Source of the DNA: Escherichia coli
GTDB taxonomy: Bacteria; Pseudomonadota; Gammaproteobacteria; Enterobacterales; Enterobacteriaceae
Direction: 5' to 3' (one strand)
Length of the DNA: 64,000 bases
Assembly: GCF_036507355.1 (NCBI RefSeq)
Contig: NZ_AP027877.1
Both the position numbers and the translations under genes were made by a program. Positions 56,574 through 58,151 of the stretch are shown one piece after another. The notes beneath the pieces were generated by a model that was given only the letters and a program-made list of their open reading frames with translations, made no database searches and was not told the DNA's origin. Each line of letters begins with the position of its first letter. Within the stretch, counting starts at the first letter, position 1.

Positions 56574-56612
56574 AAAAAGCCGGGAAGATGTTATTTTCTT
56601 CCCGGCTTTTTT
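56574..56612. terminator. bidirectional intrinsic terminator between the symE-like gene and the Rhs immunity gene
   Basis: aaaaagccgggaaga...tcttcccggctttttt hairpin flanked by A and T runs. Confidence 0.7.
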
Positions 56613-56904
56613 AAAGTTTATTTATAGCTTGGTTAATTTCAAATAATAATGAGACAATATCTTTCGCAGAACCATTATAAATGGGGGTATCCCAATCAAA
56701 GTCCTTTATTAAACAAATATAAAAATTCCCATTTAAATTAAAAGATGGTCGCCACCCAACATCCAAAAGATACCCACCAGGATATTCAACTTGGAGCATA
56801 TCTTCCTTAAGTTCATCTCGCTGTTCATTAAGAGGGATGCTTTGTTTCAGGGAGAAGTCATTAAAAATTACATTCCCTTTTTTTCCTAAGAAATCAATGT
56901 TCAT
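56611..56904 (-). CDS. putative Rhs toxin immunity protein
   Basis: 97-aa AT-rich ORF whose start overlaps the Rhs stop (ATGA), the classic position of Rhs immunity genes. Confidence 0.65.
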   Translation of the reverse strand: MNIDFLGKKGNVIFNDFSLKQSIPLNEQRDELKEDMLQVEYPGGYLLDVGWRPSFNLNGNFYICLIKDFDWDTPIYNGSAKDIVSLLFEINQAINKL

Positions 56905-58151
56905 GGTGTTGTTAGCCTTCGGAATTCATCAAGTGATATGGGATGTCCATGTATTGTCCCACCGCTAAGTTCAACTCGAACCCATTGAGATTCTTTACCC
57001 TCACTGGCCCCAATAACTTTCCCCATATCTTTTACTTTCCATGGTTTACCGTTGGTAACAGGTGTGCCTGTATTAAAAACATCGTATTCCAGCGTTTTAA
57101 TATCAATATCGGGAGAATATTTTGCCGGGCCTGATTTTGTTGATTTAATTATATCCTTCCATGATTTGTTTTTTGGAGGAAAATGTTTGTATCCATGATT
57201 TGTCCATTCAGGTTGCCCACACTTTAAACCTAACGGGTCGATCCACCCCAACGGATTCGGCGCGTATTGGTATAAATTTAATCCACCAAGCAGCCCTATC
57301 GGATCCGTTACCATGAACCGCCCGACATCCGGATCATAGTACCTGTGCAGATTGTAGTGCAGCCCCGTTTCCCTGTCGAGGTACTGTCCCTGGTAGCGCA
57401 GGTTCTGCTCCACCCTGCCGTGGTCCTTCTCCTGTATCGTGTTACCCCAGACCTGATACCCCGTCTCCCACACGATTCTCCCGTCGCTGTCCGTCATCTC
57501 TTCCGGCGCACCGTTCACATCCGTGTGAAAATACAGTATCCGGTTCGGGCCCTCTTTGCCTGCCTTATCCACCCGCGCCAGCGGTTCATAACTCCCCGGG
57601 TCCCTGTAGATGTACAGGCTGCCTGTTCCCTCCGGCCTGCTCTCCTGCGCCAGCCGCATTCCGTCCCATAAAAATTTTGTCCGGTTGTACGGTTTACCGT
57701 CAGGGCTGATGTGCTGTTTTTCCGTCCGCCTCCCCAGTGCATCGTACACATACCGGTATGCCCCCCGCGCTGTCGTCACTTCCACCATCCGGTGTTCCGC
57801 ATCATAACGGTAACTCTGCGTTCCGCTCCGGCCCTCCTTTTCCACCGCACGGCCAAATTCGTCATAACGGTAGTGCACACCACGGTAAGACATCAGCCGG
57901 TTGAACGGCACCACGCTGTTTTCTGCCGTGGCCCTTTCCCCCGCGCGCCTCCCCAGCAGGTTTCCCGCCGCGTCGTACTGCCAGCTCGCCAGATACCCCT
58001 CATCCTCCGAACGGCACGCCGTGATGCGCCCCGTGGGGTCGTAGAAGTAATCCGTTTCCCCCCGCCGGCTGTGCCGCGTCTTCAGCAGTTCATCCTCGCC
58101 ACTGTAGCTGTACTGCCGGTCCGTGAACGTCTCCGGTACCACCCCGCGCAT
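56901..58151 (-). CDS. Rhs protein C-terminal part: last YD repeats, DPxGL boundary motif and about 107-aa variable C-terminal toxin domain
   Basis: YD-repeat sequence, then [27 protein letters not shown] followed by an AT-rich divergent tail; in frame with the upstream Rhs ORF across a single TAG. Confidence 0.85.
   Translation of the reverse strand: [416 protein letters not shown]

Follow-up and report, generated by a model that had tools for sequence, protein, structure and literature searches.

What is encoded by the AT-rich tail of an Rhs gene in Escherichia coli, and why has this tail been kept while the rest of the gene has decayed? The question is raised by a stretch of 64,000 nucleotides from one E. 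coli genome (NCBI RefSeq assembly GCF_036507355.1, contig NZ_AP027877.1; hereafter, the window), in which the last 107 codons of an Rhs gene (the tip) are followed by an overlapping gene for a protein of 97 amino acids. For this cassette we computed the sequence anatomy, the homology, a fold prediction, the conservation of residues, the pairing of the genes, and their decay; from these we infer RNase activity, what individual residues do, how immunity works, and why the cassette was retained. The explanation that we favor, with a probability of roughly 0.7, is that the tip is the RNase-type toxic domain of a prePAAR/PAAR Rhs effector belonging to a type VI secretion system (T6SS), that the 97-residue protein is the immunity protein, and that the cassette in the window was retained after its delivery part was lost.

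Anatomy of the Cassette

The tip occupies positions 56901–57224 of the minus strand (107 codons plus the stop codon), and the gene for the 97-residue protein occupies positions 56611–56904 of the same strand. The ATG of the latter overlaps the stop codon of the former as ATGA, which reads tcat on the plus strand at 56901–56904. Directly before the tip lies the PxxxxDPxGL boundary (57225–57260, minus strand), the motif for Rhs self-cleavage, by which the toxin is set free. The minus-strand open reading frame (ORF) at 56901–58151 encodes 416 amino acids and consists of the end of the Rhs core and the boundary motif, followed by the 107-residue tail. Upstream of the tip, the sequence matched TIGR03696 (Rhs_assc_core; E = 8e-29), RHS_core, and YD repeats in NCBIfam, and RHS and RHS_repeat in Pfam. 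The GC content falls from 0.59–0.66 in the Rhs core to 0.33–0.42 in the tail and the 97-codon gene. The tip is a small basic domain with an isoelectric point (pI) of 9.4, and its partner is acidic (pI 4.5). A bidirectional hairpin resembling an intrinsic terminator, with a 17-bp stem (56572–56613), is situated between the immunity gene and a convergent symE remnant, and closes the unit.

A first-pass annotation of the window had described an AT-rich tail of about 107 residues after the Rhs boundary and a 97-residue ORF with an ATGA overlap, and our coordinates, translations, and GC drop all agree with this description. Both ORFs are conserved genes and not chance ORFs: the profile of the toxin family collected 594 clusters at 50% identity (335 of them at E ≤ 1e-10) among 1.84 billion representative sequences, and the 97-residue protein has 51 homologues. 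The interpretation of the tip and the 97-codon gene as a polymorphic Rhs toxin/immunity cassette, of the T6SS PAAR-Rhs effector type, is supported.

Family and Closest Relative of the Tip

Neither the tip nor the 97-residue protein had any match in the Pfam, NCBIfam, PHROGs, or PADLOC libraries, and a Pfam search with 56 relatives of the tip together with the 97-residue protein also returned no match. In the Protein Data Bank (PDB), the tip was approximately 90% identical (E = 2e-62, 104 residues) to residues 1426–1529 of entry 8QJC, the PAAR-Rhs core and toxin of Salmonella bongori. According to the preprint that describes this protein, the toxin is auto-cleaved, could be cloned only together with its immunity gene, and lacks ordered density inside the shell in the crystal; the domain is predicted there to be an RNase, with H1437, K1458, H1515, and H1517 as candidate catalytic residues (10.1101/2024.02.26.582050). 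By the alignment offset, these residues are H14, K35, H92, and H94 of the tip, i.e., all four are among those that we name below. The first-pass annotation had called the tip unrecognized, which is correct for the profile libraries but does not extend to the literature, where this orthologue has been described.

The similarity between the two loci goes beyond the orthologous toxin domain. They share the Rhs boundary, and in S. bongori the downstream gene of 97 codons is 70% identical at the protein level, has the same ATGA overlap, and is followed by a convergent SymE gene. The difference lies in the carrier, which is a full-length, self-cleaving PAAR-Rhs protein in S. bongori and a truncated pseudogene in the window. 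The S. bongori orthologue and its prediction as an RNase were already known, and the biology is ordinary for polymorphic toxins. In the literature, we found nothing further on the T6SS or Rhs proteins of E. coli MP1 or on a published version of the preprint, and the paper on the S. bongori T6SS does not deal with the Rhs protein of 8QJC.

Among 193 full-length domain sequences that were 39–99% identical to the tip, the domain stood at the extreme C-terminus in all 193. The family is large and moves among Rhs/T6SS, PT-HINT, and S-type pyocin carriers without having a profile model, and defining it would improve the annotation of effectors and immunity proteins. Many members are proteins of 600–1300 amino acids with signal-peptide-like N-termini and low-complexity sequence like that of AT-rich genomes, and have no Rhs, HINT, or NCBIfam domain. 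Sorting the N-terminal carrier domains of the family by regular expressions proved too crude and was used only to see that Rhs-type boundaries occur. A tblastn search of a phage collection found no copy of the tip, so the carriage of this clade by phages or MuF proteins is without support. Entry 8QJC was the sole genuine match of the tip in the PDB sequence search; weak PDB matches to the anti-Thoeris protein Tad2 (E = 0.09) were set aside as chance, being absent from the searches with the family profile and the fold.

Predicted Fold and Candidate Active Site

The structure prediction that the first-pass annotation had proposed for the tip gave a confident result. The AF2 model built from the 56-sequence alignment had a pLDDT of 96.2 and a pTM of 0.87, with the fold of RNase toxins. 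Its strong structural neighbors were all RNases of a single fold class, and Foldseek, run on the model, returned the same top two neighbors. The fold of the tip is thus predicted to be of the Barnase-EndoU-Colicin-RelE (BECR)/RNase-A-like type, as in RNase toxins.

Residue conservation was calculated over the 193 full-length domain sequences. The N-terminal pair K13-H14 is conserved in 94 and 98% of these, respectively, and the C-terminal residues H92, H94, and P95 in 98, 94, and 99%. Between them, T29 (99%), K35 (89%, or 94% when counted as K/R), K63 (90%), R83 (87%), and E85 (90%) are also strongly conserved. We consider K13-H14, K35, R83/E85, and H92-G-H94-P95 to be the candidate catalytic residues. 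In a divergent relative encoded on a Klebsiella plasmid, the K-H pair and the sequence I-H-S-H-P are retained, and positions 83 and 85 are occupied by V and K; a member that has lost R83/E85 but kept its histidines suggests that the active site is centered on the histidines. From the His-rich end of the tip, the first-pass annotation had guessed at a small nuclease. With H14, H92, and H94 among the best-conserved polar residues and the fold being that of RNase toxins, this guess can be narrowed to an RNase of the BECR/RNase-A-like type; nothing indicates a DNase. For a domain currently annotated as part of an “RHS repeat-associated core domain-containing protein,” and for its partner, a “hypothetical protein,” there is now a testable assignment, i.e., a predicted RNase with named candidate residues and a cognate immunity protein.

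Could the tip be toxic in another way, as a DNase, an NAD+-consuming enzyme, or some other enzyme that shares the small alpha+beta fold? The activity assigned to it depends on prediction, no RNase family of Pfam matches it, and a nearly invariant R83/E85 pair is unusual among RNase-A-like enzymes. However, the strong structural neighbors are without exception RNases of one fold class, and the pattern and register of the conserved histidines and lysines agree with those of the Ntox50 RNases described in the next section. The Klebsiella relative, which keeps K-H and H-x-H-P but has V in position 83 and K in position 85, makes R83/E85 less likely to belong to the catalytic core, and HNH, PD-(D/E)xK, and ART motifs are all absent from the tip. 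The fold match of the immunity protein is weak and generic. We therefore regard a non-RNase toxin as unlikely and retain the RNase assignment.

Comparison With Ntox50 and Other RNase Toxins

The experimentally characterized toxins closest to the tip in structure belong to the Ntox50 group, and the tip model shows the same fold as the solved members. For two of these, RNase activity involving catalytic histidines has been shown by experiment. MafB2-CT of Neisseria meningitidis (PDB 8HHJ) is a ribonuclease with the RNase A fold, the toxicity of which requires H335, H402, and H409 (PMC9970974), and YxiD-CTD of Bacillus subtilis 6633 (PDB 9V8I) is a metal-dependent tRNase of the Ntox50 family with catalytic H447, H521, and H528 together with K446 and K524 (PMC12700104). 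This closer structural link to characterized RNases is new for the family of the tip.

For a comparison at the level of sequence profiles, an Ntox50 alignment was built from a true Ntox50 protein encoded in a Clostridium sporogenes locus, the sequence of which, when searched against the PDB, matched both 9V8I and 8HHJ. In the local hhalign alignment with the tip family, D-M-G-K-V-I-G-A of the tip was paired with D-F-G-K-I-I-G of Ntox50, and T-I-H92-G-H94-P with G-V-H-I-V-P, which is a sensible register; in the global alignment, K13-H14 was also paired with the K-H of Ntox50. Three elements occur in the same order in the tip and the Ntox50 toxins: a K-H dyad near the N-terminus, a strand with DxGKxIG, and a strand with H-x-x-P toward the C-terminus. 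With MafB2, YxiD, and RNase A taken as models, the tip would act by acid-base catalysis, in which H14 (with K13) may serve as the general base and H92/H94 of the HGHP sequence as the general acid; the lysines would hold the phosphate, and K35 and R83/E85 would line the active site.

Several points weigh against the explanation that we favor, most of them against its enzymatic part. The Pfam model of Ntox50 (PF15542) did not match the tip at E ≤ 10 or any of the 56 relatives at E ≤ 0.1. The hhalign comparison of the tip family with Ntox50 was weak, with a probability of approximately 7% and a pairwise E-value of 0.005 over 53–62 columns; this is below significance, so the alignment was not accepted as proof of homology. 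The middle catalytic histidine of Ntox50 (H521 of YxiD, H402 of MafB2) aligns with E85 of the tip, and the chemistry may differ. The tip could be metal independent, like RNase A, or metal dependent and directed at tRNA, as reported for YxiD. The RNase activity itself is deduced from a predicted fold and conserved residues, and the proposed spatial clustering of H14, H92, and H94 is derived from the overlay in the preprint and the alignment register.

The hidden Markov model of the tip family, when searched against the PDB, retrieved neither 8HHJ nor 9V8I. The Ntox50 signature, consisting of an N-terminal (K)H, a middle H, and a C-terminal HxVP (Zhang et al., 2012; H447, H521, and H528 in YxiD), is only partly shared by the tip. 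Given the lack of a match to the family profile and the incomplete signature, we do not consider the tip to be a member of PF15542; within the BECR/RNase-A-like fold, the tip family is better described as a clade that is sister to Ntox50.

MafB2-CT and YxiD-CTD also resemble the tip in being the C-termini of polymorphic toxins, each neutralized 1:1 by a small immunity protein. In contrast, sequence identity to the tip is only 16–20%, and the tip has HGHP in place of HxVP and Glu85 in place of the middle histidine. The immunity proteins MafI2 and YxxD are not among the structural neighbors of the 97-residue protein, indicating a different immunity fold, and delivery is by Rhs/T6SS for the tip, but by the MafB system and by LXG proteins and the type VII secretion system for the two Ntox50 toxins. 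The RNase-A-like contact-dependent inhibition toxin CdiA-CT of Yersinia kristensenii (PDB 5E3E) is more distant: its structural match to the tip is weaker, and it differs in its catalytic His/Arg/Thr/Tyr residues, its immunity fold, and its type V secretion. YxiD is reported to be metal dependent, and MafB2 and CdiA-CT of Y. kristensenii appear RNase-A-like; in the accessible text of the corresponding reports, metal dependence of RNA cleavage is not established for these two.

The C. sporogenes locus mentioned above (L014, 1–6537) is a Gram-positive array of toxin cassettes that encodes, in this order, an Ntox50 toxin, a toxin of the tip family with a homologue of the 97-residue protein, an Imm11 gene, and an EndoU toxin. 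Here, two related RNase clades occur side by side as separate cassettes.

Pairing of the Immunity Protein With the Toxin

The first-pass annotation had regarded the two genes as a polymorphic toxin/immunity pair, and the gene order in other organisms bears this out. As already mentioned, the S. bongori homologue of the 97-residue protein (70% identical) is encoded directly downstream of the toxin. Homologues follow Rhs fragments directly in orphan arrays of Proteus mirabilis (57% identical), a PT-HINT-toxin fusion in Paenibacillus urinalis (34%, E = 1e-24), the toxin in C. sporogenes (43%), and a gene annotated as an S-type pyocin on a plasmid of Klebsiella michiganensis, with a 4-nt overlap (33%, E = 4e-9). 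Because the pairing with the toxin is kept across unrelated carriers and phyla, the 97-residue protein, judged by its gene neighborhood, is the cognate immunity protein. The acidic protein would presumably bind the toxin 1:1 and block its basic, RNA-binding face. Like the family-wide residue conservation, this linkage of toxin and immunity genes over several carriers is new.

The Klebsiella copy is located on the conjugative IncFIB plasmid p8BG (L012, 1587–3608), where the divergent toxin domain ends a 178-codon gene annotated as “S-type pyocin domain-containing” and is followed by the homologous immunity gene. The pair adjoins a gene for a colicin-like tRNase bacteriocin. The position of this copy at the end of a pyocin-type gene suggests that the toxin domain also serves as the killing module of a bacteriocin. 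In P. mirabilis, the two loci examined (L007 and L008) are long arrays of orphan Rhs tips and immunity genes, including TreTu/TriTu, Ntox30, Tox-HNH-EHHH, and barnase/barstar-like types. These arrays carry the 97-residue homologue, sometimes without a recognizable full toxin upstream, and look like poly-immunity islands.

Decay of the Rhs Carrier Gene

The tip and immunity pair was found in 15 of 5,426 complete E. coli genomes. In the window, it is located in the ybfA-to-ybgA interval of the E. coli chromosome, with kdpA, ybgA, phr, dtpD, ybgI, and pxpBC as flanking genes. Strains 14EC033 and 100416 have an intact arrangement at this site, consisting of ybfA, a DcrB-related/DUF1795 gene of 150 codons, a gene for a 1544-residue Rhs protein, the 97-codon gene, a convergent SymE gene, and ybgA; in E. 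coli MP1, an equivalent set lies behind a vgrG gene. The intact Rhs protein begins with MEEAFWAARQGDALLH... and continues into hydrophobic stretches. We take this N-terminus to be of the prePAAR/transmembrane/PAAR class, which depends on an Eag-type chaperone. In such an intact, EagR/DcrB-type chaperone-dependent effector, the YD-repeat shell would enclose the tip, which would be cleaved off behind the PxxxxDPxGL motif (DPLGL) and injected by the T6SS into neighboring cells, where it would most likely cleave RNA in the cytoplasm.

The gene in the window has lost the parts needed for this. A 1512-nt in-frame deletion, with a 7-nt microhomology at 60053–60059, fuses codon ∼109 of dcrB to codon ∼448 of rhs, and takes out the prePAAR motif, the transmembrane helices, the PAAR domain, and approximately 450 N-terminal Rhs residues. 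What remains on the minus strand is a 5′ fragment of the DcrB-related/DUF1795 (EagR-type) chaperone gene (60053–60380, codons 1 to ∼109) and a remnant of the YD-repeat shell (57225–60059), which corresponds to residue ∼448 onward of the intact 1544-residue protein. This remnant is 114 nt short relative to strain 14EC033, owing to a second in-frame deletion of 38 codons within the YD repeats (58476–58480, minus strand), and is interrupted by an in-frame nonsense codon, TAG (58221–58223, minus strand), where TB06052 and MP1 have CAG (Gln). On its reading frame, the Rhs carrier gene in the window is a pseudogene, and the N-terminal deletion, the second deletion, and the TAG codon together mean that the toxin would be undeliverable by the window strain as encoded. 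The 416-residue ORF is the tail of the broken frame, restarting at the first ATG past the nonsense codon; we rejected it as a delivery-competent effector because of this origin and the poor spacing of its ribosome-binding site. The pseudogene state of the carrier, which was missing from the first-pass annotation, is a new result.

The exact junction of the 1512-nt deletion was found in none of the 5,426 genomes. In TB06052 (L001, 9402–12877), a different deletion has removed the 3′ end of dcrB and the 5′ end of rhs at the same locus, leaving an uninterrupted frame of approximately 1105 codons through the tip. RefSeq annotates this Rhs gene as a pseudogene, with an annotation that ends at the core and leaves the 107-residue tip unannotated. 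Because the deletions in the window and in TB06052 differ, there have been at least two independent losses of the delivery part, with the tip and the immunity gene spared each time. With these two deletions at one chromosomal site, the locus is a clean natural case in which a delivery gene has decayed and its tip and immunity gene have been kept.

It might still be argued that the pair is a working T6SS weapon, in which the 416-residue or the fusion ORF is loaded and fired, or the tip is recombined onto another, full-length Rhs protein. No damage is seen in the tip, the PxxxxDPxGL motif, or the immunity gene, and orphan tips are known to be mobilized by recombination onto full-length rhs genes (10.1101/2024.02.26.582050; PMC7043789). 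Our view of this genome is confined to 64 kb, and a second intact Rhs gene elsewhere could recombine with the tip, which adds to the points listed above against our explanation. However, the N-terminal deletion has removed parts that are needed for delivery, the chaperone gene is truncated, and the TAG codon stands between the remaining shell and the tip. A partial shell is unable to enclose the toxin (10.1101/2024.02.26.582050). There is no second Rhs match in the window, and even the strains with an intact locus lack an annotated vgrG gene between ybfA and dcrB. On balance, we consider a working weapon very improbable, and we interpret the cassette in the window as probably a relic or an orphan-immunity locus; it may also be a module of a toxin-antitoxin-like kind.

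Retention of the Tip and the Immunity Gene

If the cassette is a relic, the immunity gene persists most plausibly by protecting the strain against kin that carry an intact effector at the same locus. Alternatively, a tip expressed internally would make the pair toxin-antitoxin-like. In the stronger form of this alternative, the cassette would be a chromosomal addiction module or one that resembles a type II toxin-antitoxin system, in which a short transcript from an internal promoter at the end of the Rhs core expresses the tip fragment and the immunity protein. A cell losing the cassette would be penalized and growth possibly modulated, as shown for the main and orphan Rhs-CTs of Salmonella Typhimurium.

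A candidate for such a promoter is a sigma-70-like site, TCGACA-17-TACAAT (57351–57379, minus strand), within the end of the Rhs core, which matches the consensus at 10 of 12 positions and is the best such site in 56200–61700. Transcription from it is predicted to start approximately 84 nt upstream of the sequence that codes for PxxxxDPxGL, and an in-frame ATG follows the site at 57315–57313. In Salmonella rhs, the active internal P2 start is 89 nt upstream of the PxxxxDPxGL motif, and P2 is found upstream of many Rhs toxins, some of them in E. coli (Starsta et al., 2020; PMC7043789). On the other hand, a promoter scan gave 6 sites compared with 5.7 in shuffled sequence, i.e., a chance level. 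Conservation of the promoter-like site is no separate line of evidence, as the coding motif in which it lies is itself highly conserved, and no convincing ribosome-binding site precedes the internal ATGs.

The divergence of the tip was also considered in this context. The tip has zero amino-acid changes relative to MP1, TB06052, and 14EC033. Compared with MP1, 2 of 321 nucleotides differ in the tip and 43 of 927 in the adjacent core (p = 3e-4); compared with TB06052, the differences amount to 2 of 612 nucleotides in the tip and immunity gene together and 27 of 927 in the core (p = 1.5e-4). Taken separately, the immunity gene differs at 11 of 291 positions from MP1 and at 2 of 291 from TB06052, and the tip at 0 of 321 from TB06052. 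The two different deletions in the window and TB06052, both of which leave the tip and immunity gene untouched, also fit an internally expressed module. However, the low divergence of the tip is equally well explained by a recent exchange of the cassette through recombination, so that either selection or recent recombination could account for it.

The main and orphan Rhs-CT modules of S. Typhimurium (PMC7043789) are the closest known parallel. There, too, a tip/immunity pair is kept without a usable delivery part, and the window has a promoter-like site at the equivalent position upstream of PxxxxDPxGL. A neighboring SymE-type gene and the isrA small RNA are also present in the window. The toxin domain differs, and in the window internal expression and a toxin-antitoxin-like phenotype are candidates only. 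We consider the operation of the cassette as an addiction module to be possible, but clearly less probable than its persistence as an orphan-immunity locus. Equally tentative is a combined proposal, in which the tip represents a BECR RNase clade without a Pfam model, its active site is composed of His14, Glu85, and His92-x-His94, where Ntox50 has three histidines and HxVP, and may act on a new RNA target or by a new cleavage chemistry, and internal expression keeps the cassette as an addiction module. The locus bears on the question of what keeps orphan Rhs cassettes in genomes, a role as immunity islands or one as toxin-antitoxin-like elements. Specialists in polymorphic toxins would not be surprised by any of these findings.

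Neighboring symE and isrA

Beyond the terminator-like hairpin, a gene of the symE family of type I toxins is located on the plus strand (56238–56567). It has a stop at codon 3 (MA*HD...), where MP1 reads MAEHD, and all that is left is an ORF of 75 codons that begins at an internal Met (56340). The annotation of TB06052 gives symE as frameshifted. In each enterobacterial copy of the cassette that we examined, a SymE gene comes after the immunity gene. A strong Rfam match to the Hfq-binding small RNA isrA (RF01385; 112.9 bits compared with a gathering score of 51) lies on the minus strand at 56309–56437, just downstream of the immunity gene and the terminator and antisense to the symE-like ORF. 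The rhs/T6SS island of Salmonella contains isrA as well.

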